64,000 bases of DNA from an uncultured Porticoccus sp. (GTDB lineage: Bacteria > Pseudomonadota > Gammaproteobacteria > Pseudomonadales > Porticoccaceae), in assembly GCF_963973895.1 (NCBI RefSeq), contig NZ_CAXBBF010000001.1. One strand, written 5' to 3'. The notes under the pieces are model-generated. The model was given only the letters and a program-made list of their open reading frames with translations, did no database searches and had not been told where the DNA came from. The translations under genes were made by a program, and so were the position numbers. Positions within the stretch are counted from its first letter, which is position 1. Each line of letters begins with the position of its first letter. Shown here piece by piece: positions 5,843 through 28,090 of the stretch.

Positions 5843-8368
5843 TTACGCCGATTTGGCCAACAGTTGGTCGGTTTCTTCTTCGGTGGCCGGCCGCGGCTGG
5901 CCACGCTCCTGCACGAACACAACCCGTTCGTCCGCCGCATCAGAGTTGACGAACTGGCGGAAGCGCTTGAGTTTTTCCGGATCCTCAATGGTGGTTTTCC
6001 ACTCGCACTGGTAGGTGCCGACAATACTGTTCATCTGCTCCTCCAGTTCGGCACAGATACCCAGCCGGTCGTCGATGACCACCTCTTTCAGGTAATCCAG
6101 ACCACCCTCCAGATTGTCCAGCCACACCGAGGTGCGCTGCAGGCGGTCAGCGGTTCGTACATAGAACATCAGGAAGCGATCGATGTACCTGATCAGGGTT
6201 TCGTCATCCAGGTCGGTGGCGAACAGGTCGGCGTGGCGGGGTTTCATGCCGCCATTGCCGCACAGGTACAGGTTCCAGCCGTGCTCGGTGGCAATTACCC
6301 CGAAGTCCTTGGATTGCGCCTCGGCACACTCCCGAGTACAGCCGGAGACGGCGGACTTCAGTTTGTGGGGCGAGCGCAGACCCTTGTAGCGATCTTCGAT
6401 ATAGATCGCCATGCTGACGCTGTCCTGTACCCCGTAGCGGCACCAGGTGCTGCCGACACAGGATTTGACGGTGCGCAGTGCCTTGCCGTAGGCGTGGCCG
6501 GTTTCAAAACCGGCGTCGATCAGTTCTTTCCAGATATCCGGCAACTGATCCACTCTGGCCCCAAACAGGTCGATCCGCTGCCCGCCGGTAATCTTGGTGT
6601 AGAGATTGTATTTTTTGCCCACCTCGCCGAGCACAATCAGTTTTTCCGGGGTAATTTCGCCGCCCGGCACCCGTGGCACCACGGAATAGGTGCCATTTTT
6701 CTGCATATTGGCCAGAAAGGTGTCGTTGGTATCCTGCAGGCCCACATGTTTCTCTTCGAGGATGTAGTCATTCCACAGGGAGGCGAGGATGGAGGCCGCT
6801 GCCGGTTTGCAGATCTCGCAACCGCGGCCGCTACCGTGTTTACCCATCAATTCCTCAAAAGACTTGATGGATTCCACCTTGATAATGTGGAACAGCTCCT
6901 GGCGGGTGAACTGGAAGTGCTCGCAGATGGATTTGTTCACCTCCATACCGCGTGCAGCCATTTCGTCGTCCACAACATTCTTCAGCAGCGCCGCGCAGCC
7001 ACCACAGCCGGTGCTGGCCGCGGTGCAGGACTTCACGTCTGCCAGCGAGCAACAGCCACCATCGATGGCGCTGATGATGTCGCCCTTGCTGACATTGTGG
7101 CAGGAGCAGATCGTTGCCGTGGCGGGCAGGGCCGCCGCGCCCAGCAGTGGCGCGCCACCTTCGCTGGCGGGCAGAATCATGGTTTCAGGGTTGGCGGGCA
7201 GCTCGATGCCATTGAGGTAATACTGCAGCAGGGTGTCGTAGTCGGAACAGTCGCCCACCAGCACTGCCCCCAGAGCGGTTTTGCCGTCTGCGCTGACAAC
7301 CAGGCGTTTGTAGACTTCCTCGCGCTCGTCACTGAAGGTGTAGGCGATAGCACCCGGAGTTTTGCCGTGGGAATCGCCGATGGAACCCACGTCGACACCC
7401 AGCAGTTTCAGCTTGGTGCTCATGTCGGCACCCTGAAAAGCGCTGTGTTCGCCGGTCAGCTGACTGACAGCCACTTCCGCCATGCGGTAGCCGGGGGCCA
7501 CCAGACCGAAGATCATGCCGCCATACAGGGCACATTCACCGATCGCAAAAATGTCGGAATCACTGGTGCGACAGTGGTAGTCGATGGTGATACCACCGCG
7601 CGGGCCTACCTCCAGGCCGCAGTCCCGGGCCAACTGATCAGAGGGGCGAATCCCGGCGGAGAACACGATCACATCGGTGGCCAGGGTTTCGCCATCGGCG
7701 AAGTTCATCACCAGGCGGGTGTCCTTGCCATCAGTTGCGGTAATGGTCTGGGTTGCCTTGCTGGTATGTACCTGAACATCCAGGGCTTCAATTTTGCGGC
7801 GCAGCATGGCACTGCCGCCATTGTCGAGCTGCACACCCATCAGACCGGGGGCAAATTCCACCACGTGAGTTTTCAGGCCGAGATTCTGGAGGGCATTGGC
7901 CGCCTCCAGTCCAAGCAGGCCACCGCCGACCACAACGCCGACTTTGGCGTCCTTGCTTCTGGCCTGAATCATACCGAGATCGTCGATGGTGCGATACACC
8001 AGACAGTCGGGCAGGTCGGCCCCGGGAATCGGTGGTACAAAGGGGTAGGAACCGGTGGCCAGCACCAGTTTGTCGTAACGGAAGCTGCGGCCACCCTCGG
8101 TGGTGACCGTTTTGGCTTCGCGGTCTATGGTTGCCGCGGCATCGCCGAAGTAGGCATCCACGCCGATCGATTGGTAATGCTCGCGGGTGGTCAGCGCCAG
8201 CTCTTCAGGTTTGCGACCCGCGAAGTATTCCGACAGGTGGACCCGGTCGTAAGCGGGGCGGGGTTCGGCCCCGAGGACGGTGATTTTGGCGGTAATGCCG
8301 GATCCGGCCAGTTGTTCCACGTAGTGGTGGCCCACCATTCCATTTCCTATAACGACAATTTTCAACAT
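5843..8368 (-). CDS. nirB: Nitrite reductase [NAD(P)H] large subunit
   Basis: 841 aa. Contains the Rossmann motif GNGMVG, the BFD-like motif TICSCHNVSKGD, and sirohaem/4Fe-4S motifs SCVGSTWCRYG and SGCTRECAEA. Confidence 0.95.
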   Translation of the reverse strand: MLKIVVIGNGMVGHHYVEQLAGSGITAKITVLGAEPRPAYDRVHLSEYFAGRKPEELALTTREHYQSIGVDAYFGDAAATIDREAKTVTTEGGRSFRYDKLVLATGSYPFVPPIPGADLPDCLVYRTIDDLGMIQARSKDAKVGVVVGGGLLGLEAANALQNLGLKTHVVEFAPGLMGVQLDNGGSAMLRRKIEALDVQVHTSKATQTITATDGKDTRLVMNFADGETLATDVIVFSAGIRPSDQLARDCGLEVGPRGGITIDYHCRTSDSDIFAIGECALYGGMIFGLVAPGYRMAEVAVSQLTGEHSAFQGADMSTKLKLLGVDVGSIGDSHGKTPGAIAYTFSDEREEVYKRLVVSADGKTALGAVLVGDCSDYDTLLQYYLNGIELPANPETMILPASEGGAPLLGAAALPATATICSCHNVSKGDIISAIDGGCCSLADVKSCTAASTGCGGCAALLKNVVDDEMAARGMEVNKSICEHFQFTRQELFHIIKVESIKSFEELMGKHGSGRGCEICKPAAASILASLWNDYILEEKHVGLQDTNDTFLANMQKNGTYSVVPRVPGGEITPEKLIVLGEVGKKYNLYTKITGGQRIDLFGARVDQLPDIWKELIDAGFETGHAYGKALRTVKSCVGSTWCRYGVQDSVSMAIYIEDRYKGLRSPHKLKSAVSGCTRECAEAQSKDFGVIATEHGWNLYLCGNGGMKPRHADLFATDLDDETLIRYIDRFLMFYVRTADRLQRTSVWLDNLEGGLDYLKEVVIDDRLGICAELEEQMNSIVGTYQCEWKTTIEDPEKLKRFRQFVNSDAADERVVFVQERGQPRPATEEETDQLLAKSA

Positions 8369-8388: not shown

Positions 8389-9609
8389 TTATTTCATTTC
8401 GCGTACGATGTCCTGACCGGTCTGGTCACTGAACATCAATTGATTTGCATTGGTACCGAGTGGTTGCCCCTCGCTGATCAGGGTCTCGTAATGGCTGCAC
8501 AGACTTTTGTCACCAAACAGCAGGGCAGCCTGCAAGCGGTTATCCTCAATCACCAGACGTCGATAAATACCGGCGGACGGGTCGTTGATCACAATATTGC
8601 GTTCACTGTTTCCTGCGTTTAGACGTCCCGCCGAGAACACATCAATTCCCGATACCTTGAGTTGGGTCGAGTGTTCTCTGGGTCGATAACAGGCGGCGTT
8701 GCCCAGCAGGGTTTCGGCGAGGACTTTTGCCTGTTCCCAGATCGGCGCAACAATACCCACGGTGGTGTTGTTGTGTTCCGAACACTCACCGAGGGCATAG
8801 ATATGTTTGATGGACGTATGCATCTGGTCGTCGACGACGATGCCACGGTTGATCTTCAGTCCGCTGTCCCTGAATACCTGTACATTGGGTGATATTCCGG
8901 TAGCAAACACCACCAGCTCGCCCGGTAGCCAGTCGCCGTTTTCAAGCATCAGGCCATCTGCGCGTTCGCTGCCGGTAACGGCTTTGGTTCTTACCCCGGT
9001 GAGGACAGAGATGCCCCGGTCTTCCAGGCTTTTTTTCAGCATGGCTGCGGCGGTCGCATCGAGTTGCCGATTCATCAGGTTGTCGCTGTTGTGCACCACG
9101 GTGACATCCAGACCGAGATGATTCAGGCCATAGGCGGCTTCGAGCCCCAGCAGACCACCGCCAACCACCACGGCGCGTTGACCCTGCCGGGCGAAATCCT
9201 GCATGAGGGCGACATCATCGAGGGTGCGAAAGGACATGACACCGGGCAAGCTGTTTCCCGGAATCGCCGGTACAACGGGTCTCGAGCCGGTGGCAATCAC
9301 AATACGGGAAAATTGTGTCTGCCACCCTGAAGCGGTGGTTATGGCCAGATTGCCGGTATCCAGCTGGATCAGCGGGTCGCCACAACGCAGACGAATATTG
9401 TTGGCGCGATACCAGTCATCGCTGAGCAATGGCAGGCAATCCAGGGTCTTATCGCCGGTGAGTAACGAGGACAGCTGTACGCGGTTATAGGCCTTGACCG
9501 GCTCTTCACCAATCATGGTAATTGACCCCGAAAAACCGCCATTCACCAGCGCCTCGGCGAGGCGGGCGCCTGCCATACCAGTTCCGACAATTGCAATAGA
9601 ATCTGCCAT
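8389..9609 (-). CDS. FAD-dependent pyridine nucleotide-disulfide oxidoreductase, probable NAD(P)H electron-transfer subunit for nitrate reductase
   Basis: 406 aa with two dinucleotide-binding motifs (IVGTGMAG, VVGGGLLGLE). It resembles the N-terminal half of NirB and sits between nrtD and nirB. Confidence 0.75.
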   Translation of the reverse strand: MADSIAIVGTGMAGARLAEALVNGGFSGSITMIGEEPVKAYNRVQLSSLLTGDKTLDCLPLLSDDWYRANNIRLRCGDPLIQLDTGNLAITTASGWQTQFSRIVIATGSRPVVPAIPGNSLPGVMSFRTLDDVALMQDFARQGQRAVVVGGGLLGLEAAYGLNHLGLDVTVVHNSDNLMNRQLDATAAAMLKKSLEDRGISVLTGVRTKAVTGSERADGLMLENGDWLPGELVVFATGISPNVQVFRDSGLKINRGIVVDDQMHTSIKHIYALGECSEHNNTTVGIVAPIWEQAKVLAETLLGNAACYRPREHSTQLKVSGIDVFSAGRLNAGNSERNIVINDPSAGIYRRLVIEDNRLQAALLFGDKSLCSHYETLISEGQPLGTNANQLMFSDQTGQDIVREMK

Positions 9610-9612
9610 TGC

Positions 9613-10533
9613 TCAGGCTGCCCTGGTTTTGTCGGTGCCGGTCGTTGTCTTACCGGTATCGACAGCGGCATCGTCCTGTGAAGAGGCCGGTTTACATGCC
9701 ACCTCCTGTAACTTCCTGGCAGAGTCGGCCGGCTTTTTTTCGATCTGAGGATTTTTCTGCTTGTCGTAGAGAAATTCCAGGACCTGCTGACGGTAGTGAA
9801 TGAAGTCGGCGTCTTCAGCCAGGGCCAGCCTGTCCCGGGGGCGGGGCAAATGGACGTCGAGTATTTCACCAATGGTGGCGGCGGGGCCGTTGGTCATCAT
9901 GACGATTCGATCCGACAGCAAAACGGCCTCATCCACATCGTGGGTAATCATGATCACCGTGTTGCCCAGACTGGTCTGGATTTCCATCAGTGAATCCTGC
10001 AGGTGAGCGCGGGTCAGGGCATCCAGTGCGCCAAATGGCTCGTCCATCAGCAACACTTTGGGTTCCATGGACAGACAGCGGGCGATACCGACGCGCTGTT
10101 TCATGCCGCCGGATATTTCTCCGGGCAGTTTGTGCAGGGCGTGGTCCATATGAACCAGTGAGAGGTTGTGTTCAATCCACTCGTGCATTTCCGCCTTGTT
10201 TTTGGTCTTGCGAAAGACCCTTTTTACCGCCAGTTCGACATTCTGGTACACGGTCAGCCACGGCAACAGGGCATGATTCTGGAAGACCACTGCCCGGTCG
10301 GGTCCCGGTTTGTCGACTTCGCGCCCTTCGAGAATGACGCCGCCTTCGCTGGCCTCATAGAGTCCGGCGATGATGTTCAATACCGTGGACTTGCCGCAGC
10401 CGGAGTGGCCAATCAGCGAGACAAACTGGCCCTTGTCAATTGATAGGTCGACATCCTGCAGGGCGCGGAACGGCTCACCATCGGTGGCAAACTCAATGCC
10501 GATATGGCTGATTTCCAGATAGGGTTTTTTCAT
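9613..10533 (-). CDS. nrtD: Nitrate/nitrite ABC transporter ATP-binding protein
   Basis: Walker A GHSGCGKST, signature ISGGMKQRVGIAR, Walker B LLMDEPFGALD. It follows the nrtA and nrtB homologues. The C-terminal ~50 aa form a low-complexity tail. Confidence 0.88.
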   Translation of the reverse strand: MKKPYLEISHIGIEFATDGEPFRALQDVDLSIDKGQFVSLIGHSGCGKSTVLNIIAGLYEASEGGVILEGREVDKPGPDRAVVFQNHALLPWLTVYQNVELAVKRVFRKTKNKAEMHEWIEHNLSLVHMDHALHKLPGEISGGMKQRVGIARCLSMEPKVLLMDEPFGALDALTRAHLQDSLMEIQTSLGNTVIMITHDVDEAVLLSDRIVMMTNGPAATIGEILDVHLPRPRDRLALAEDADFIHYRQQVLEFLYDKQKNPQIEKKPADSARKLQEVACKPASSQDDAAVDTGKTTTGTDKTRAA

Positions 10534-10563
10534 AGGTTGCTCCTTGACTGCTGTCCGCCGCTG

Positions 10564-11565
10564 TTAGCGGAGAATTGCCTGTTTGTCCCAGCTGATACGT
10601 TTCTGAAGGAGCAGCATGAGGCGATCCAGCAGAAAACCGATCAGTCCAATGGTCACCACAGCCACCATGATGCGACCCAGCGAATCCGATGAGCCATTCT
10701 GAAACTCATCCCAGATAAATTTTCCCAAACCGGGGTTCTGGGCCAGCATCTCGGCGGCAATCAATACCATCCAGCCAGTGGCCAGGGATAACCGCATACC
10801 GGTGAAAATCATGGGTATGGCGGAAGGGATAACAATTTTTTGGACGTGCACCAGCGAAGGCAGTTGCAGAACCCGGCTGACGTTGACTAGGTCGCGATCG
10901 ATACTGGTGACGCCCACCGTAGTGTTGATCACGGTGGGCCAAAGGCAACAGAGGGCCACAGTAAATGCGGAGGTCAGAAAGGCCTTTTCAAACATGGGGT
11001 CATCGGTGACATAAAGGGCCGATACCACCATCGTCACTAGCGGTAGCCATGCCAGGGGTGAGACCGGCTTGAATGTCTGAATGATCGGGTTCACCGACTG
11101 GTACACCTTTTCGCTCAAGCCGCAGACGATGCCCAGCGGCACCGCAATCACTGTGGCGATCAGAAACCCGAAAGACACGGTATAGAGGCTGGTTATCACC
11201 TGATCCAGGAAGGTGGCTTTACCGGTATAGCTGCGAATTTTTACTTCCGCATCGGGATTCTGGGCCAGCCGTTTGGCATTTCTATCCTCTTGCCGCTGGT
11301 AGAATGCGGCTGCTTTTTCCCGCTCCCGTTGGTGCTCGGCCAGCAAGCCTTTGGATTGCTCCCAGACTTGCACCGGTCCCGGAAATTGCCCCAGTGAGGT
11401 ATCGATATTGTTGGCGACACCCTGCCAGAGCATTAAAAAAATCAGGATGCCAGCAAGAGGGAGGGCGAGGGTTTTACCCACTGTGCGGGCAATACTGCTC
11501 AGTTGTGAGATAGAGAAGCGGGCGATTCCCTGTTCATTCCTGAAAATAGCAGCAAGGTCAGTCAT
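10564..11565 (-). CDS. nrtB: Nitrate/nitrite ABC transporter permease
   Basis: 333-aa polytopic membrane protein of the NitT/TauT permease type, located between the binding-protein and ATPase genes. Confidence 0.85.
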   Translation of the reverse strand: MTDLAAIFRNEQGIARFSISQLSSIARTVGKTLALPLAGILIFLMLWQGVANNIDTSLGQFPGPVQVWEQSKGLLAEHQREREKAAAFYQRQEDRNAKRLAQNPDAEVKIRSYTGKATFLDQVITSLYTVSFGFLIATVIAVPLGIVCGLSEKVYQSVNPIIQTFKPVSPLAWLPLVTMVVSALYVTDDPMFEKAFLTSAFTVALCCLWPTVINTTVGVTSIDRDLVNVSRVLQLPSLVHVQKIVIPSAIPMIFTGMRLSLATGWMVLIAAEMLAQNPGLGKFIWDEFQNGSSDSLGRIMVAVVTIGLIGFLLDRLMLLLQKRISWDKQAILR

Positions 11566-11636
11566 GTAATAGATCCTTCGGTGGCTAATGGGCAGCCTTG
11601 ACTGCCCGTGCTTTACTTAAGATTTAGCGTTGCCCA

Positions 11637-13028
11637 TCAGAGCGTTTCGTCTTTCAGACCAATGGAAAATTTTTCCAGGTAGGCGTTGGGCTGCGTGCCA
11701 TCGAACGTGATGTTGTCGATAAACTCTGATTGAGGCGGTTTGAAACCGGATTCGCTGTCCAGGTCCGGAAAATCCTCCGCAGACATCAGTCCTTCGGCAA
11801 TCAATGCCTTGGCTGCGGTGGCATAGATGTCTGGGAGATAGACTTTCCTGGCGGTCTCGAAATACCACTCATCGCTTTTGGGCTCGGCAATCTGTCCCCA
11901 GCGGCGCATCTGGGTTAAATACCAGACGGCATCGGAGTAATAGGGGTAAGTGGCAAAATAACGGAAGAACACGTTGAAGTCGGGTACGTCGCGTTTGTCA
12001 CCCTTCTCGTATTCAAAGGTTCCCGTCATGCTGTTGGCAATAACTTCATAATCCGCGCCGACGTATTCCGAACGGGAGAGGATTTCAACGGCTTCAGGGC
12101 GGTTGACATTGTTGTTTTCATCCAGCCACTTGGCGGCACGGAGCATGGCCTTGACCAGGCGGGCGGTGGTGTTCGGGTACTTCTCGGTAAACTCCTTGGT
12201 CATGCCAAAGACTTTTTCCGGGTTGTTTTTCCAGATCTCATAATCCGTGATCACTGGAACCCCGATACCCATGAATACCGCTTGCTGGTTCCAGGGCTCG
12301 CCGACGCAGTAGCCGTGAATAGTGCCAGCCTCCAGGGTGGCGGGCATCTGAGGTGGAGGTGTGACAGACAGCAGGGCTTCGGCGTTGATATTGCCGCTGG
12401 TATCGCCCTTGTGTGGTGCGTAGAAGCCGGGATGAATACCGCCGGCCGCCAGCCAGTAGCGCAACTCGTAGTTGTGCGTGGAGACCGGAAAAACCATGCC
12501 CATTTTAAATGGCGTGCCCTGCGCCCGCATTTGATCGACCACCGGCTTCAGATAGTCGGCTTTGATCGGGTGGACCGGTTTGCCCTCAGCCATCGGTACG
12601 TGGGCTTTCATTTTCTCCCAGACAGCATTGGAAACGGTAATACCGTTTCCGTTGAGGTCCATACTGAACGGCGTAACGATGTGGGCTTTGGTGCCAAAGC
12701 CAATGGTGGCCGCCAGGGGCTGACCGGCGAGCATGTGGGCGCCATCAAGTTTGCCGTCGATAACCCCATCCAACAGCACTTTCCAGTTAGCCTGTGCCTC
12801 AATGGTGACGTAGAGTCCCTCATCCTCGAAATAGCCATTTTCGTAGGCGATAGCGATAGGTGCCATGTCCGTCAGCTTGATAAAGCCAAACTTGAGCTCG
12901 TCCTTTTCAGGCGGTCCCAGTTCGGCGTGTGCCCAACTGCCCATGACCAAAAAGGACAGGGTCAACAGGATCCATTGTGGAAATTTCAGTCTTTTCTGTA
13001 CCAGGGAGTCTTGAAAATTGCTGTTCAT
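11637..13028 (-). CDS. nrtA: Nitrate/nitrite ABC transporter periplasmic binding protein
   Basis: 463 aa with a signal peptide ([15 protein letters not shown]) and an NrtA/NMT1-like body. It is paralogous to the cytoplasmic NasS ORF upstream. Confidence 0.88.
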
Positions 13029-20769: not shown

Positions 20770-22239
20770 ATGTTGCGAATCGCAGAAGAAGCTCTCACCT
20801 TCGATGACGTACTGCTGGTACCCGGTTATTCCGACATAACCGCAAAAGATGTTTCTCTTAAAAGCCGCCTGACGCGGAACATTGGACTGAATATCCCGCT
20901 CGTCTCTGCCGCGATGGATACCGTTACCGAGGCGCGACTCTCCATCGCGCTCGCCCAGGAAGGTGGTATCGGTATTATTCACAAAAGCATGTCCATCGAA
21001 AAACAGGCCCTGGAAGTGCGCGCCGTCAAGAAGTTCGAAAGCGGTGTGGTCAAAGACCCGATTACCATAGATGCTTCTGCCCCTGTCAGTGCCTTGCTGT
21101 CCCTGACCCGTGAACACAATATTTCCGGTGTGCCCGTGCTGGATAACGGGGAGCTGGTGGGTATTGTCACCCGCCGCGACGTTCGCTTTGAACCCAGTCT
21201 GGATTTGCCGGTATCGGCCATCATGACGCCCAAGGATCGACTGGTAACCGTGCGGGAAGGGGCCAACGCAGACGAGATCAAAGCACTGCTGCACAGGCAC
21301 CGCATTGAAAAGGTATTGGTCGTAAACGCCGATTTCGAGCTGCGTGGACTGATTACCGTCAAGGATATCGACAAGGCCGAAAAATATCCCAACGCCTGCA
21401 AGGATGATCAGGGCCGATTGCGGGTAGGGGCCTCCGTGGGCACCAGCGCCGACACCGATGAACGTATTATCGCCCTGGTTCGGGAGGGTGTGGATGTGCT
21501 GGTGGTCGATACTGCCCACGGTCACTCTCGCAATGTGCTCAACCGGGTACGTCAGATCAAGGCCCAGTTCCCCGAGGTTGATGTGATCGGCGGCAATATT
21601 GCCACAGCCGAGGCGGCTTTGGCGCTGGCCAAAGCCGGTGCGGATGGCATCAAAGTGGGTATTGGTCCCGGATCGATTTGCACCACGCGCATTGTAACCG
21701 GCATCGGTGTGCCACAAATTTCCGCCGTCGCCAATGTGGTTGAAGCATTGGCAAGTTATCAGATACCTGTTATTGCCGACGGGGGTATCCGTTTTTCAGG
21801 CGATATCGCCAAAGCGCTGGTCGCCGGGGCCCACGCGGTAATGATGGGCTCGATGTTTGCCGGCACAGAAGAAGCGCCCGGTGAGATTGAGCTGTATCAG
21901 GGCCGAACCTATAAATCCTATCGTGGCATGGGATCGATGGGCGCAATGTCCCAGACCAGCGGTTCCAGCGACCGTTATTTTCAGGATGCAAGCCAGGGTA
22001 CTGAAAAACTGGTCCCTGAAGGCATTGAAGGCCGCGTTCCCTACAAAGGTCCGTTATCGGCGATCATTCATCAGCTGATGGGCGGCGTGCGATCAGCCAT
22101 GGGTTACACCGGCAGCGTTGATATTGAAACCCTGCGCAGTAAACCCCGTTTTGTCAGGGTGACTTCTGCGGGTATGAGTGAAAGTCACGTGCACGATGTA
22201 TCCATCACCAAGGAAGCTCCAAATTACCGGCGTGAATAG
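20770..22239 (+). CDS. guaB: IMP dehydrogenase
   Basis: 489 aa with a CBS pair insert and the catalytic loop [11 protein letters not shown]. Confidence 0.97.
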
Positions 22240-22312
22240 CCTGGGTTTCCGGTGTGTTGAAAACGACCCGACAGGGCTGCCTAGAGCAGCCCTTTTAGAT
22301 TGGTAACTGACT

Positions 22313-23887
22313 ATGACAGATATTCATTCTCACAAAATCCTTATCCTGGATTTCGGCTCCCAATATACGCAGTTGATCGCCCGCCGTGTACGCGAAGTCG
22401 GGGTCTACTCGGAAATCCGTGCCTGGGATATGGATGAAGCCGAGATCATTGCCTTCGATCCCAAAGGCATCATCCTGGCGGGGGGGCCGGAGTCGGTTAC
22501 CGCCGGAGAATCGCCCCGGGCTCCTAAGCTGGTTTTCGAGCTGGGTATCCCGGTTCTGGGTATCTGTTATGGCATGCAGACCATGGCTGCCCAGCTCGGT
22601 GGCGCCGTGGAAGGCTCTTCGATTCAGGAATTTGGCTATGCCCAGATCAAGACCCACGGCAACAGCCGCCTGTTCCAGGGTGTGGCTGACCATGTGGATC
22701 ATGACGGGGGCACACTGCTCGATGTCTGGATGAGTCATGGCGATAAAGTGGTTACCTTGCCAGCCGGTTTCGAACTTATGGCGTCGACGGGTTCCTGCGC
22801 CATTGCCGGCATGTATTGTCCCGAAAAAGATTTTTATGGTGTCCAGTTTCACCCGGAGGTGACACACACCCTGCAGGGCATGCGGATGTTTGAGCACTTC
22901 GTGCTTGATATCTGTGGCTGCGAGGCACTCTGGACGCCCGCTCAGATTATTGAGGACAGTATTGCCCGGGTGCGTGTCCAGGTCGGCAGTGACAAGGTGT
23001 TGCTGGGGCTTTCAGGAGGCGTCGATTCATCCGTGGTCGCAGCGTTGTTGCACAAGGCCATCGGCGACCAGCTCACCTGTGTTTTTGTCGACAACGGCCT
23101 GCTGCGCAAGCACGAAGGCGATCAGGTCATGGACATGTTTGCCAAAAACATGGGGGTGAAAGTCATCCGTGTGGACGCAGAAAAACAGTTTTTGAGCAAA
23201 TTGGTGGGGGAGGCTGACCCGGAGAAAAAGCGCAAAATCATTGGCAACACGTTCATTGATATTTTCGATGTGGAGGCTACTACCCTCAAAGACGTCAACT
23301 GGCTGGCCCAGGGCACTATCTACCCTGATGTCATCGAATCGGCGGCGGCCAAGACCGGCAAGGCCCATGTGATCAAATCCCACCACAATGTAGGAGGCCT
23401 GCCCGAGACCATGAAAATGGCGCTGGTAGAACCCCTGCGGGAACTATTCAAGGACGAAGTCCGCAAGATTGGGCTGGAACTGGGCCTGCCCTACGACATG
23501 GTGTATCGACACCCATTCCCGGGGCCGGGGTTGGGTGTGAGGATTCTCGGTGAAGTCAGAAAGGAATACGCCGATATCCTCAGGGAAGCCGATGCCATTT
23601 TTATCGAAGAACTCCACAAAGCCGATTGGTACCACAAAACCAGCCAGGCGTTCGCCGTCTTTCTGCCGGTCAAGTCCGTGGGTGTGGTGGGCGATGCCCG
23701 TCGCTACGAATGGGTGATTGCCCTGCGCGCGGTGGAAACCATCGACTTCATGACGGCCCGCTGGGCACATTTGCCCTACCAACTCCTGGAACAGGTTTCC
23801 AATAGAATTATTAATGAAATCAGTGGGGTATCAAGGGTTGTTTATGATGTTTCTAGTAAGCCTCCGGCGACGATTGAATGGGAGTAG
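22313..23887 (+). CDS. guaA: GMP synthase (glutamine-hydrolysing)
   Basis: 524 aa with the GATase motif GICYGMQ, the ATP-PPase P-loop SGGVDSSV and the conserved C-terminus PPATIEWE. Confidence 0.97.
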
Positions 23888-24030: not shown

Positions 24031-24666
24031 GTGTCAAAATTTTTTCCCCAACATCTTGCAGCATTTACAATTGCCGTTTTGTTGATGACAACATTTTCGT
24101 TCAGTGCGTTTGCAGAAAACCCGCAATGTTATAAAAAGATCGAAGGGATTTCACTTGATCAAAGCGTTGGCGACATTACAAATAAGTTGCAGCAATTGGG
24201 ACTGCAAGACATTACCTGCAAACAAAGATCAAAGATGCCTTGTGCCGCCAGAAAAAAACAAATGCAGACTTATGCCACGAACGATCAAGGTTCTCTGCAT
24301 AAGGTCGGTGATAAACTGGCGAGACTGACATTTGATAATACGGGAAAGCCAAGAAGCTTTGCGTATGAATATTATACTGACGGCCCTTCGACGCTACAGG
24401 CACATGATGAAAACAGAAGCTGGGAAGGCTGGACACATAAGGATACGATCGAATCCCGCATCAATGAATATTGCAAAGGCTCCACACCAGAGGGCGTCAG
24501 AGTTGGCTGTAAATACGGCAGCGCACTTACCATTAATGTTATGTACGGCGAACCACGCGATAAAGATTGCTCGTATAAGTTCAACGTCATGTTCAGTGCT
24601 GTGAGAGGAAAGCCGGAAGCCCCGACAAATCATAAAATTATCGAGACGATAACGCTCAATAAATAA
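24031..24666 (+). CDS. Hypothetical secreted cysteine-containing protein
   Basis: 211 aa with a GTG start and signal peptide (AVLLMTTFSFSAFA). I recognise no family. The surrounding DNA is AT-richer than the flanks. Confidence 0.55.
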   Translation: MSKFFPQHLAAFTIAVLLMTTFSFSAFAENPQCYKKIEGISLDQSVGDITNKLQQLGLQDITCKQRSKMPCAARKKQMQTYATNDQGSLHKVGDKLARLTFDNTGKPRSFAYEYYTDGPSTLQAHDENRSWEGWTHKDTIESRINEYCKGSTPEGVRVGCKYGSALTINVMYGEPRDKDCSYKFNVMFSAVRGKPEAPTNHKIIETITLNK

Positions 24667-24905: not shown

Positions 24906-24940
24906 AAAAGCCCAGCATCTTCGCTGGGCTTTTCTTTTCT
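24906..24940 (+). terminator. Rho-independent terminator (possibly bidirectional)
   Basis: AAAAGCCCAGC-ATCTTC-GCTGGGCTTTT followed by CTTTTCTT. It lies 240 nt after the nearest annotated stop. Confidence 0.7.
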
Positions 24941-25040
24941 TGACCTCGCAATAAGCTGACATGCGCAGGTAACGAATATTTACCCTTCCTGTTACCAGTA
25001 CTCTCATATTGATTTTGAAAAAGTATTTCTGAGTTAGTTG

Positions 25041-25092
25041 ACTGTACTATTACAGTTTGATAGGCTGCATTTAAGCACTGTAAAAATACAGT
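25041..25092 (+). promoter_or_regulatory. Twin 16-bp palindromic operators ACTGTA-N4-TACAGT upstream of the Xre-RES cassette
   Basis: ACTGTACTATTACAGT (25041-25056) and ACTGTAAAAATACAGT (25077-25092). A TTGACT hexamer overlaps the first copy. AGGAGG at 25105-25110 precedes the ATG at 25117. Confidence 0.55.
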
Positions 25093-25116
25093 ATTGGTGC
25101 TGCTTAGGAGGTAATC

Positions 25117-25518
25117 ATGATCGCTCAAGCCGAACAACTGCTGCAACGTGGTTCCAGTGTCACCAGTTCACTGCTGCCGGCGATTTTCAATATCTTCAGC
25201 CAGTGGCGCCTCACTGGTGCCCAGCAGATGACGCTACTGGGACTCAGCAATGAGAAGACCCTCTATAACTGGAAGAGCCAACCCGAGAAGGCCAAGCTGA
25301 CGCGAGACCTATTGGAACGGGCCAGCTACATTTTGGGGATCTACAAGTCCTTGCAAATCCTGTTGCCTGATCAGGTGCTGGCTGACCAGTGGCTGGCCAC
25401 ACCGAACGACAACCCGCTGTTCAATGGCACGGCGCCGCTGGACCGGATACTTGCTGGTCAGGTGGTCGACCTGGCCGTGGTCAGGGATTTTCTTGATGCG
25501 GAGCGGGGTGGTTGGTGA
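25117..25518 (+). CDS. Xre-like/DUF2384 antitoxin (ParS/MbcA family)
   Basis: 133 aa with the C-terminal toxin-binding region typical of DUF2384 (WLATPNDNPLFNGTAPLDRILAGQVVDLAVVRDFLDAERGG). It overlaps the RES gene start. Confidence 0.8.
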   Translation: MIAQAEQLLQRGSSVTSSLLPAIFNIFSQWRLTGAQQMTLLGLSNEKTLYNWKSQPEKAKLTRDLLERASYILGIYKSLQILLPDQVLADQWLATPNDNPLFNGTAPLDRILAGQVVDLAVVRDFLDAERGGW

Positions 25519-26219
25519 TTGCGATCGATACGCTACCCAGCAGCGAGGTCAATGAACCGGTCTACCGGGTCATCCTGTCGCGCTATCCCCAGATCCACCT
25601 CTTCGAGCGCGTCTCCAATCCCCAGGATTGGGACGTGCTCTACGCCGTCGAGTCGCTGACCAACCCCCGGCTGCGCGATGAAGTCGGCGATATTCGCCTG
25701 GTGCCGCCGGAAGACCGCGTCTATGGCGATGGTGCCTCCTGGATCATGGCTACCTTCACTCATCTGCCGGTGGACAGACGGGGTGGTCGCTTCAATCGGG
25801 ACTTCGGTATCTATTACTGTGCTGCCGATGAGGCAGTGGCCATTACTGAATCATCTTTTCATCGGGCGCGCTTTCTGCGGGAATCCCGAATCCACAAAAC
25901 CACCCAGGAAATGCGCGTGATTCGTGCGCACTTGGGACCGACAACTCTTCACGATGTGCGGCACCTGGCCGGACACGCTATTTACCATCCCGATGACTAC
26001 GCTGAAGCCCAGCAGCTCGGTTACGCGTTACGTAATGCCAAAAGCTTTGGTGTTCACTACCAAAGCGTGAGAACGAAAGGGGAGTGCTACGGCGTGATGC
26101 GTGCCCGAGTGCTGTCCGATGCGATCCACTGGCGCTATCTGCGCTACCACTATGACCAGGGGACGATCGTCAACGTTGAATCCCTCGATGGCAATAGTGG
26201 CGGCAGTGGCAGGAGGTGA
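25512..26219 (+). CDS. RES-domain toxin (ParT/MbcT family, NAD+-targeting)
   Basis: 235 aa with RES signature residues in GGRFNRDFGIYYCA, AITES and HYQSVR. The start is TTG 25512 or GTG 25515, overlapping the antitoxin stop. Confidence 0.82.
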   Translation: MVIAIDTLPSSEVNEPVYRVILSRYPQIHLFERVSNPQDWDVLYAVESLTNPRLRDEVGDIRLVPPEDRVYGDGASWIMATFTHLPVDRRGGRFNRDFGIYYCAADEAVAITESSFHRARFLRESRIHKTTQEMRVIRAHLGPTTLHDVRHLAGHAIYHPDDYAEAQQLGYALRNAKSFGVHYQSVRTKGECYGVMRARVLSDAIHWRYLRYHYDQGTIVNVESLDGNSGGSGRR

Positions 26220-26818
26220 TGGCAATGTATAAAGAGCTGCTGTGGATCTTCACCCAACTCCCGGACGATTACATCGTCCTTGATACCGAAACCACCGGGC
26301 TCCCAGACGAAAACGGCCCGCCGGATATCGTGACACTTGGCATCACCGTGGTAAGAAATCGGGAGATAGCGGCATCCTTCGAATTTAAAATACAGCCACA
26401 AAAACATATTTCAGAAGAAGCGCAGTCGATACACGGCATTACTAACGAACAGGCCGCTGAATTCGAATCCTTCGGTGCCCAGTGGGACCAGATCGCGCAA
26501 TACTTAAAAGAACAACTGATTGTCAGCCACAACGCCAGTTTTGATTGGCCCATCCTGCTTGACCATGCCGCGCGATACAATTTGAAAATGCCCATAATTA
26601 GTGGTGTGTTTTGCAGCCAGAAGGCCTCCATCCCTTGGGCACAAGCGATGAATTTGCCCTGCAGCCAGAGAGGACCGTCGTTAGATACGTTGACGGAAGC
26701 GCTGGGCGTTGAAAACCTCAGAGAAAAGAGCAGTGGAATACATGGAGCAGAGATAGATAGCCAGCAGGCGGCTCGAGTGGTGGAAACAATGCGACGATCT
26801 GGGACCCCTTCAATCTGA
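26219..26818 (+). CDS. DEDDh 3'-5' exonuclease (DnaQ/epsilon-like domain protein)
   Basis: Exo I LDTETTGL, Exo II SHNASFDW, Exo III HGAEIDSQQAA. AGGAGG at 26211-26216 lies inside the end of the RES gene. ATG 26219 overlaps the RES stop TGA (26217-26219); ATG 26225 is an alternative start. Confidence 0.85.
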   Translation: MAMYKELLWIFTQLPDDYIVLDTETTGLPDENGPPDIVTLGITVVRNREIAASFEFKIQPQKHISEEAQSIHGITNEQAAEFESFGAQWDQIAQYLKEQLIVSHNASFDWPILLDHAARYNLKMPIISGVFCSQKASIPWAQAMNLPCSQRGPSLDTLTEALGVENLREKSSGIHGAEIDSQQAARVVETMRRSGTPSI

Positions 26819-27220
26819 AGTGTCAACCTGTTCCACCGGACCGGTATTTTTCTCTGGTGCCCAAATCTGTGCTAGCACTGACGAGAAGTTGTTGCGCTCA
26901 AATTGAAATAATCAAACAAATACTGGCTGGTATTCACAGCTAGCGGTAAGCAATATTTTGCATGGTATTTTCCAGGATATTGTCTGGATTAAATGAGTGA
27001 CAATCATTCAATTACAATGAAAATTGGGTGAAATGGCTAGGCTTGCCCCTAATCAAAATATTGTTGTTCTGATGATTATATGGGGGTAAAGTTTTGCCAA
27101 AGGTCATAGCAGAATGAAAAGAACTGCCTTCCAAGACCCAAGCCATCATTTCATGCTTGTACCTTAGCTTTATCCCCGATTCATTGAAAACTATTCGTCG
27201 TATCTTTGAGGATAAATCCG

Positions 27221-28090
27221 ATGAGCAGGTTACCCCTTTTTAAGATTCTAGCGTTAAGTATGGTGGTGAGCAGTTGTGGTGGCAGTGAGGACTCAGCAGT
27301 AAGTAGTACAGAACACGCCAGCCCTAACGACACTGCTATAACGAAATCAGCGACTCAAACCACTCAGCCTTCTGCTATGCAACCGGCTAAAGGGACCATT
27401 GGCAGCCGTATCGGACCCGATATCGCCGGCCTGTATCTGGGTATGACACCTGAAGAAGTCAATGCTGTAATGAAAGCCTACGATGCAAGCATACGTATCC
27501 AGGACACCAGCCGTTATTTTGAATACAACGCGCTGGGCAAACGCTACAAAACTGACAGCTTTCTGGTCGCCACACATGGTCAGATGCCGGGGGGCAGCGT
27601 CGGTCTGTCAGTCGGTTACTCTTACCCTCCCAGCGAACCACGTGTAGTTTCCATCACTCGGGGCCACCGCCAAACCACAGAACCTTTAACTCAGGCCGAT
27701 TATGCGAAGGCACTGATTGATAAATACGGCCAACCAGTCGCAGATATTAATAATGGCAGAACCGACTCCAGAGCCGAACGCACGCTGAAATGGAAGTTGG
27801 CAGAAACCGGAGATACGAGCTGTGTGCTCGGTGCCTCAATAGGCAATAGTGTGCTGGATCGTTTTGTCAAAGAGGGTAGGAAGATGGCCACCGTGGACGT
27901 GACACCAGATTACGCCGCCCAATGCGCTGGGCTGTTCGAATATACCTTGCGTGGCGAACCCGTTACCAATGCAAGCGGCACCATTTTTGATGTTTGGGCG
28001 CAGGCCAAATCTGAATTTGAAGCACAGGCCTGGGTGCAACAACAGGTTGCAGAAAAATCCAAAACCGGCACGGAAGCACCAAAACTTTAG
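27221..28090 (+). CDS. Hypothetical lipoprotein
   Basis: Track ORF trimmed to MSRLPLFKILALSMVVSSCGG (lipobox VSSC). I recognise no family. Confidence 0.6.
   Translation: MSRLPLFKILALSMVVSSCGGSEDSAVSSTEHASPNDTAITKSATQTTQPSAMQPAKGTIGSRIGPDIAGLYLGMTPEEVNAVMKAYDASIRIQDTSRYFEYNALGKRYKTDSFLVATHGQMPGGSVGLSVGYSYPPSEPRVVSITRGHRQTTEPLTQADYAKALIDKYGQPVADINNGRTDSRAERTLKWKLAETGDTSCVLGASIGNSVLDRFVKEGRKMATVDVTPDYAAQCAGLFEYTLRGEPVTNASGTIFDVWAQAKSEFEAQAWVQQQVAEKSKTGTEAPKL

Follow-up and report, generated by a model that had tools for sequence, protein, structure and literature searches.

Does a DEDDh exonuclease gene that directly follows an Xre-RES toxin-antitoxin (TA) pair belong to that pair, as the third component of one system, or is it a chance neighbour? 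The question is raised by a cassette of three genes on the + strand of a 64,000-nucleotide stretch (hereafter the window) of contig NZ_CAXBBF010000001.1, from an uncultured Porticoccus sp. (assembly GCF_963973895.1), which a first-pass annotation made from the sequence had suggested to be a three-component module. About 130 related loci preserve the trio, which is co-inherited there as a unit and not as a two-gene TA system with a chance neighbour, in keeping with that proposal, and a conserved mobile three-gene operon of Xre, RES, and exonuclease, typically heading a slot of defence genes and free of such cargo in the window, is firmly supported. As to what the exonuclease does, the explanation that we favour, and hold to be probable by a modest measure, is that of a self-regulated operon in which the Xre-RES pair is accompanied by an obligate DnaQ-like exonuclease serving as a second catalytic arm, the whole being mobile and heading a defence slot of which the window holds a cargo-less copy.

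The predicted Xre-type antitoxin and repressor (25117-25518, 133 amino acids) has its own Shine-Dalgarno (SD) sequence, AGGAGG, at 25106-25111, and is followed by the predicted RES-domain toxin (25515-26219), of 234 amino acids from the GTG at 25515 or 235 from an alternative start at 25512, and by the predicted DEDDh (DnaQ-like) 3'-5' exonuclease (26225-26818, 197 amino acids). The antitoxin stop TGA (25516-25518) overlaps the toxin GTG in a GTGA motif, and the identical 4-nucleotide overlap is found in homologues. For the second junction, the first-pass annotation had correctly located the toxin stop TGA (26217-26219), an ATG at 26219, and an AGGAGG at 26211-26216, but its choice of ATG 26219 as the start of the third gene is probably not right. 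Among the possible starts of that open reading frame (26216, giving 200 amino acids; ATG 26219, giving 199; and ATG 26225), the sequence makes ATG 26225, 5 nucleotides past the toxin stop, the most likely: it lies 8 nucleotides from the AGGAGG as against 2 for ATG 26219, its equivalent is kept in most homologues while the upstream ATG is absent from several (for example, L013, L016, L031, and L042), and MYKELL is the start that most gene callers choose for homologues. With this start, the toxin-exonuclease junction is a 5-nucleotide gap with no overlap; of the chain of overlapping reading frames first described, the common strand and the antitoxin/toxin overlap stand, and the second overlap gives way to a likelier gap, one that should still be close enough for translational coupling. 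The stop-to-start gap is 5 nucleotides in 60 of 82 loci and is replaced by an ATGA-type overlap in divergent members, and the junction (GGCAGTGGCAGGAGGTGAtggcaATG) is conserved at the nucleotide level across loci, including the AGGAGG of the exonuclease gene (26211-26216, + strand) that sits within the final toxin codons. Within the 3' end of the antitoxin gene, just ahead of the toxin start, there is also a weak terminator-like hairpin (25470-25485, + strand), which could reduce toxin expression relative to that of the antitoxin.

How constant is the linkage between the three genes? Initial look-ups returned the same architecture throughout: Xre (133 amino acids), RES (230-234), and exonuclease (196-198). 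We then have two broader surveys, a genome scan using one genome per GTDB species and covering the best 80 of 153 exonuclease relatives, nearly all from Gammaproteobacteria, and a metagenome scan seeded with a six-sequence alignment of distant members of the exonuclease family. A RES gene lies directly upstream of the exonuclease gene in 77 of the 78 evaluable genome loci (in one of the 77, L073, it is frameshifted), Xre and RES are both upstream in 75 of 76, and the pair is directly upstream in 38 of 39 metagenome loci, where the exception lies on the same contig as that of the genome scan. This sole exception (L067, 7990-8594) lacks a start codon and is interrupted by a stop at codon 7, and it is best read as an exonuclease pseudogene that remained after the loss of Xre-RES. 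The linkage persists down to 49% identity in the exonuclease, 36% in RES, and 42% in Xre (L095); in the reverse direction, searches anchored on two RES proteins led to 14 places, all 14 with an exonuclease gene 4-5 nucleotides downstream, and as a negative control none of 22 loci of generic DnaQ-like proteins (26-32% identity) has a RES gene. The adjacency is far beyond chance, the enrichment of exonuclease homologues beside RES genes that the first-pass annotation had proposed to look for is borne out from both sides, and intact exonuclease homologues essentially never occur without this RES subfamily.

Two further observations concern the trio as a unit. Some copies are decaying, with a RES stop codon changed to GGA in L006 (about 7990-8000) and RES frameshifted in L019 and L073. 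Several genomes or metagenome-assembled genomes (MAGs) hold 2-4 diverged trio copies (L034, L042, L060, and L061 in one Haliea MAG; L009 and L022; L031 and L058; L046 and L062). The copies in such genomes share the CTGTA/TACAG palindrome described below, which L058 has as a single exact copy, and cross-regulation or cross-neutralisation (anti-addiction) among them is possible.

What kind of protein is the third component? It matches Pfam RNase_T (E = 3.1e-19) and carries all three DEDDh motifs, as had been noticed at first sight, and the catalytic pentad (D20, E22, D107, H173, and D178 in the numbering of the 197-residue protein) is complete in all 135 homologues with full coverage. Its AlphaFold2 model (pLDDT 95.5) confidently predicts a DnaQ-like fold: the top structural match is the exonuclease domain of Escherichia coli Pol III epsilon (TM-score 0.74/0.82, 27% identity), and further matches include DinG, PolC, a CRISPR-associated DnaQ domain, and ExoX. 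With DnaQ (Pol III epsilon), ExoX, the DinG exonuclease domain, and the CRISPR-associated DnaQ domain it has in common the fold and the DEDDh motifs; it differs from DnaQ in its low identity, in ending after the exonuclease domain, in an N-terminal helix of its own, and in being encoded by a gene that is always linked to RES. The match to epsilon is limited to epsilon residues 8-181, the C-terminal polymerase-tethering segment being absent, and the NCBIfam dnaQ models give the protein 76-77.5 bits where 196-223 are required, so that it does not qualify as a dnaQ equivalog. The family-specific helix, LLWxFxxLP, is the most constrained region of the exonuclease, with a ratio of nonsynonymous to synonymous differences (pN/pS) of 0.08-0.10. 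Close relatives number in the hundreds (76-88% identity; Porticoccus, Haliea, Nitrincola, Algiphilus, and others), and in an exhaustive profile-free search over 1.8 billion representatives the exonuclease forms a small discrete subfamily, with 22 clusters at E <= 1e-30 and then a drop to generic DnaQ-like scores. In PADLOC-DB v2, the matches of the exonuclease are confined to a generic Cas-associated DEDDh model and the exonuclease domain of PDC-S48, and the plasmid and phage collections, where matches were at dnaQ level only, contain neither the trio nor any member of the exonuclease subfamily. One distant member of the subfamily (P0259; L184 6001-6657), at 36% identity, lacks the DEDDh residues, and its neighbourhood contains no RES gene, with a primase and an Mrr_N/N6 methylase nearby. 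We considered whether catalytically dead distant relatives might be a sign of a non-catalytic role in the trios and rejected the idea, since P0259 is the one that could be placed and it is not beside RES.

The first two proteins are assigned by Pfam above gathering scores in the case of the antitoxin, which contains Xre-like-HTH (PF20432, E = 6.9e-12) and Xre_MbcA_ParS_C (formerly DUF2384; PF09722, E = 1.8e-9) and is 85-100% identical in most relatives, and at E = 1.7e-26 for RES (PF08808) in the toxin. R18, E112, and S184 of the toxin are invariant in the RES alignment, and all three are intact in 121 of 123 full homologues. Beyond this, the toxin stands far from studied proteins: phmmer found no match in the PDB, a profile search reached a sole solved relative, Pseudomonas aeruginosa NatT (8QNQ/8QNL), at E = 1e-6, and an AlphaFold2 model from a shallow 16-sequence alignment (pLDDT 39.5) was too poor for use. 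Neither Xre nor RES matches any PADLOC-DB v2 model at E <= 0.01. All three genes are under purifying selection, with a mean pairwise pN/pS, over about 100 sequences, of 0.10 for Xre, 0.14 for RES, and 0.20 for the exonuclease, and with no 20-codon window above 0.33.

Is the operon self-regulated? A strong hairpin resembling an intrinsic terminator (24906-24933, + strand; an 11-bp stem with 6 GC pairs, followed by the T run CTTTTCTT) would insulate the cassette from the 211-amino-acid gene upstream of it, and a sigma-70 promoter is predicted at 25038-25066 on the + strand, with a -35 box TTGACT (25038-25043), a 17-nucleotide spacer, and a -10 box TAGGCT (25061-25066). The -10 box is too weak for a consensus scan, and the prediction is based on conservation in related upstream regions and not on a consensus score. 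Two putative operator palindromes, CTGTA-N4-TACAG, lie at 25042-25055, where the first overlaps the -35 box, and at 25078-25091, 36 nucleotides downstream of the first; these are the only 2 matches to the motif in the 64-kb window, against 0.04 expected, and both are upstream of Xre. The looser form CTGT-N6-ACAG is matched at the same place in 78 of 81 related loci, with a spacing between palindromes of 36 nucleotides in most loci and of 28 or 42 in divergent subclades, and the palindrome CTGTA-N4-TACAG is confined to that position in related loci. The palindrome arms are largely conserved while the inner 4 nucleotides vary, a pattern that a protein-binding site would show. LexA boxes have an N8 spacing, and the palindromes, at CTGT-N6-ACAG, were rejected as LexA sites on that account. 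In the Pseudomonas putida Xre-RES system, the 4:2 complex contains two Xre dimers, of which one sits on a promoter inverted repeat and a second site has been proposed for the other (PMC12204516); the two palindromes would fit two such DNA-binding dimers. Inside the operon, the window scan found no sigma-70-like site on the + strand, and with the conserved SD-bearing junction this agrees with the co-expression first proposed and leaves the third gene with no sign of a separate promoter.

Some divergent members depart from this layout. In two Spongiibacteraceae MAGs, the trio (L083 1220-2837; L084 6965-8567) is inverted relative to the same block of four neighbouring genes, and in this divergent clade another palindrome precedes Xre (L084 6849-6891). 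The L084 trio is bracketed by a 15-nucleotide inverted repeat (6625-6639 and 8896-8910), which may be due to chance.

Where does the trio reside? From crude gene calling and locus clustering, with NCBIfam models applied to conserved neighbours, about 40 of the 80 genome loci are integrative conjugative elements (ICEs) of the ICEclc/PFGI-1 type in which the trio lies between traD/TIGR03747 and a RAQPRD gene. The gene order is TIGR03759, PFL_4695, TraD, TIGR03747, the trio, a variable stretch, the RAQPRD-family gene, TIGR03745, PFL_4703, TIGR03749, and TIGR03752, and the variable stretch holds Zorya I, Gabija/PARIS/OLD-like ATPases, KAP NTPases, CBASS parts, nSTAND3, BrxC/D, TatD with QueC, and others. 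This traD-RAQPRD slot is a published defence hotspot, GI-Hotspot 8. Defence systems also follow the trio outside ICEs: DRT3 in Porticoccus hydrocarbonoclasticus, Mokosh I, DndFG, a Mokosh/Hhe-like helicase, and a DrmD-like protein. In 54 of 75 loci, the gene that comes next points the same way as the trio, at a median distance of 150 nucleotides; a terminator-like site is present in only 4 of these 54 intervals, and in some loci the start of the cargo gene lies across the exonuclease stop. In nine loci, the window among them, the trio immediately follows guaB-guaA (20770-23887 in the window; the others are L006, L007, L011, L029, L038, L041, L055, and L071); the nine belong to unrelated lineages and differ in their junction sequences, which suggests that the 3' flank of guaA is a recurrent landing site of these islands.

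The cargo region offers two observations of its own. A gene for a 1443-amino-acid protein (8591-12919 in both L020 and L012), whose ATG overlaps the exonuclease stop, has no match in Pfam or PADLOC and may represent a defence gene not yet described; the next gene in Nitrincola encodes a Mokosh/Hhe-like helicase. In many relatives with differing cargo, a conserved non-coding element of about 70 nucleotides directly follows the exonuclease stop (…CCTTGAgTCATGAt…AATGTGTCCGGTtac…CAAAGCGGACAt; L009 8036-8125, L023 6059-6150, L034 8580-8670, L070 8583-8675, L067 8595-8680, and others). It has no Rfam match and folds no better than shuffled sequence.

The copy in the window is a chromosomal one stripped of its cargo. 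Its surroundings share synteny with Porticoccus MAGs (xseA, guaB, guaA, the 211-amino-acid gene, the trio, a 294-amino-acid gene, and an aldehyde dehydrogenase), suggesting a Porticoccus-like chromosome; guaA and the 211-amino-acid gene flank the trio on one side and the 294-amino-acid gene and the aldehyde dehydrogenase on the other, with no TraD/TIGR03747 or RAQPRD flank. The slot holds no variable defence systems, only a decayed 5' remnant of a cargo gene at 26815-26950 (+ strand), about 135 nucleotides of which align to the 5' end of the 1443-amino-acid gene. In BLASTP, the remnant matches the N-terminus of the L020 protein with 13 of 20 identities (E = 1e-8), and relative to the gene, of which Nitrincola and an ICE (L020) hold intact versions, it has CTG for ATG and a frameshift, so that the cargo of the window copy, as judged from its sequence, has been deleted. 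Directly preceding the promoter, ICE loci carry ccAGTACCTTCAAAAAGTATCTCTGA, the C-terminal coding sequence and stop of TIGR03747; the window has a similar stretch at 24995-25032 (+ strand; ccAGTAC...AAAAAGTATtTCTGA) that resembles the 3' end of this DtrJ-like ICE gene and is a possible, though only suggestive, remnant of an ICE origin. Direct repeats around the cassette were considered as integration scars and dismissed, as only short matches of a type often due to chance were found, and the window contains no tRNA genes. Stand-alone trios lacking cargo also occur in Halioglobus-type chromosomes. Compared with the window, several ICE loci show synonymous divergence (pS) of 0.09-0.15 in Xre, 0.35-0.46 in RES, and 0.45-0.63 in the exonuclease, and the identity between the window and ICE copies shifts in blocks with breakpoints inside genes. 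This rise in synonymous divergence, together with the block-wise identity, indicates that the module is mosaic and recombining.

Of the genes next to the window copy, the 211-amino-acid (24031-24666, with a hydrophobic N-terminus) and 294-amino-acid (27206-28090) genes are low in GC, have no Pfam match, and are found in Porticoccus loci only, and the former stays beside the trio even in L001, which has another upstream neighbour. Elsewhere in the window there is a small signal recognition particle RNA gene (2521-2617, + strand; Rfam RF00169, 71 bits).

How might such an operon work? The first-pass annotation had put forward two hypothetical functions, an abortive-infection or defence system in which an attack on NAD+ is coupled to the degradation of nucleic-acid ends, and a nuclease that would trigger or tune the toxin. 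By analogy with characterised Xre-RES systems, the Xre-RES complex would bind both palindromes and repress the promoter, and when the antitoxin is lost or titrated, through element loss, stress, or infection, free RES would consume NAD+ and growth would stop. The steps that bring in the exonuclease are the weakest of the scheme: produced in step with the toxin, it would act as a second catalytic arm, in that NAD+-dependent ligase, once NAD+ is gone, could not seal nicks, and the 3'-5' exonuclease might then enlarge the unsealed 3' ends in replicating DNA. The result would be an arrest that is harder to escape, whether for an invader or for a cell that has lost the element.

Several points weigh against this explanation. 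The members of the trio are known from sequence, a single RNA for all three genes is something that we infer from the arrangement of signals, and the synergy through ligase starvation is likewise inferred rather than observed. The RES clade is remote from every characterised RES toxin, and for this reason NADase, NAD+ phosphorylase, and ADP-ribosyltransferase are all candidate chemistries. Two-gene Xre-RES relatives with no exonuclease, at 46% identity, exist on Sphingobium and other plasmids, and in a neighbour-joining RES tree such relatives are interleaved with trio members, grouping with the divergent L087 and L095, which implies more than one gain or loss of the exonuclease. Because these exonuclease-free Xre-RES pairs exist, the exonuclease is to be seen as accessory, dispensable for the TA core and, in general, for neutralisation. 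A scan of viral contigs with RES returned only 3 matches, all distant two-gene Xre-RES loci.

The features of the slot itself might instead be taken to mean that the trio is mainly the anchor or driver of the defence slot: the TA pair would stabilise the element and its cargo, the autoregulated promoter would read into the co-oriented cargo, the trio would be the upstream homology arm for cargo swaps, and the exonuclease would serve DNA transactions of the element (recombination or the processing of transferred DNA) and not killing. The trio opens the traD-RAQPRD slot on its 5' side in about half of the genome loci, which speaks for this, as do the varied defence systems that follow it inside and outside ICEs, the orientation and closeness of the next gene with its scarcity of terminator-like sites and its occasional overlap with the exonuclease stop, and the synonymous divergence that climbs from Xre to the exonuclease in a block-wise mosaic. 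However, purifying selection maintains cargo-less trios in the window lineage and in Halioglobus-type loci, a 3'-5' exonuclease has no obvious role in a site-independent exchange of cargo, and the location of the trio is better accounted for in this way than is the failure of the exonuclease to occur without RES; we consider this account unlikely, if the most serious of those set beside our own. A bolder proposal, which is speculative and which we would not expect to hold, joins killing to control of the slot. In it, the TA pair would gate a mobile defence slot, with the Xre-RES-repressed promoter and addiction retaining the cargo, and loss of the antitoxin during infection would turn the cargo on while RES, by NAD+ removal or by KptA-like modification of nucleic-acid phosphate ends, and the exonuclease, by digesting 3' ends, attack together.

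The dependence between the genes runs one way, the intact exonuclease never occurring without Xre-RES and Xre-RES occurring without the exonuclease, and this would suit a sensor or regulator of the toxin, for example, a guard or decoy on the Xre-RES complex that frees or adjusts RES upon sensing phage proteins or free DNA ends, for which the highly constrained N-terminal helix could be the interaction surface. Such a role is doubtful, since the catalytic pentad is intact in every one of the 135 trio members, meaning that catalysis is selected for, and the only catalytically dead relative with a checkable context (P0259) is not beside RES. In ICEs the trio sits among the transfer genes and shares their strand, and published hotspots of related islands contain both defence and anti-defence genes, which might point to an exonuclease that serves the conjugative element against defences or in its establishment, degrading, for example, nucleotide signals or DNA intermediates of recipient defences, and that is merely housed in a TA operon. 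We think this very unlikely, as the trio has its own predicted promoter, is under purifying selection in chromosomal loci that have no conjugation genes, and contains an exonuclease that was not found apart from RES on plasmids or phages. Finally, both the TA pair and the exonuclease gene adjoin a recombination-prone region and might be independent units co-inherited by chance at the edge of a hotspot. This is scarcely credible: the genes stay linked in ICEs, next to guaA, and elsewhere, and across the deepest divergence sampled in RES and the exonuclease; the junction is conserved, its SD sequence lying within the coding part of RES, and turns into an ATGA overlap in divergent members; and the exonuclease has decayed where Xre-RES was lost (L067).

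The trio resembles several known systems and coincides with none of them. With the Xre-RES type II TA systems (PP_2433/2434 of P. putida, Res-Xre of Photorhabdus, MbcTA of Mycobacterium tuberculosis, ParST of Sphingobium, and NatRT of P. aeruginosa), whose antitoxins neutralise toxins that halt growth through consumption of NAD+ or ADP-ribosylation of Prs, it shares a downstream RES gene with the Arg, Glu, and Ser residues, overlapping stop and start codons, and promoter palindromes, but those have a two-gene architecture whereas the trio has a constant third gene, and its RES clade is remote from the solved toxins, reaching only NatT and only by profile. In toxin-antitoxin-chaperone (TAC) systems, the two-gene TA pair HigB-HigA is extended by a dedicated third gene in the operon, for a SecB-like chaperone; the trio, too, is a TA pair with a dedicated third gene in the same operon, but that gene encodes a predicted RNase_T/DnaQ-like nuclease in place of a chaperone. 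The ICE-borne trio and its cargo occupy the same slot as GI-Hotspot 8 and the cargo is similar (CBASS, Gabija/PARIS-like, Zorya, and others); the trio differs in being the fixed first occupant in marine Gammaproteobacteria, and the window copy lies outside any ICE. The main text and two supplement files of the GI-Hotspot 8 paper contain no match for 'exonuclease', 'Xre', or 'RES domain', and the paper reports type II TA systems in another hotspot, GI-Hotspot 2. The first-pass annotation had mentioned neither the promoter with its two palindromes, nor the ICE-hotspot setting with defence cargo in relatives, nor the cargo remnant, nor ATG 26225. It knew of no RES system with an exonuclease partner, and likewise we found no description of one in the literature searched, whose coverage was incomplete, so that this absence is not proof.

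What would such an operon mean for the biology of these bacteria? Xre-RES systems have been studied as two-protein NAD+-depleting modules tied to persistence and element stability. A clade with an obligate, catalytically conserved exonuclease suggests that the effect of the toxin is coupled to nucleic-acid processing, of which the literature searched gives no account. Should the trio prove to be a TA-gated switch of its slot, it would represent both a new three-component class of RES systems and a new organising principle of ICE defence hotspots. The trio is also a constant marker that heads the defence slot in marine gammaproteobacterial conjugative elements, and similar islands elsewhere, and is usable as bait for new defence genes, such as that for the 1443-amino-acid protein with no Pfam match, and as a concrete example on which to test how hotspots are shaped by TA modules, promoters, and recombination.

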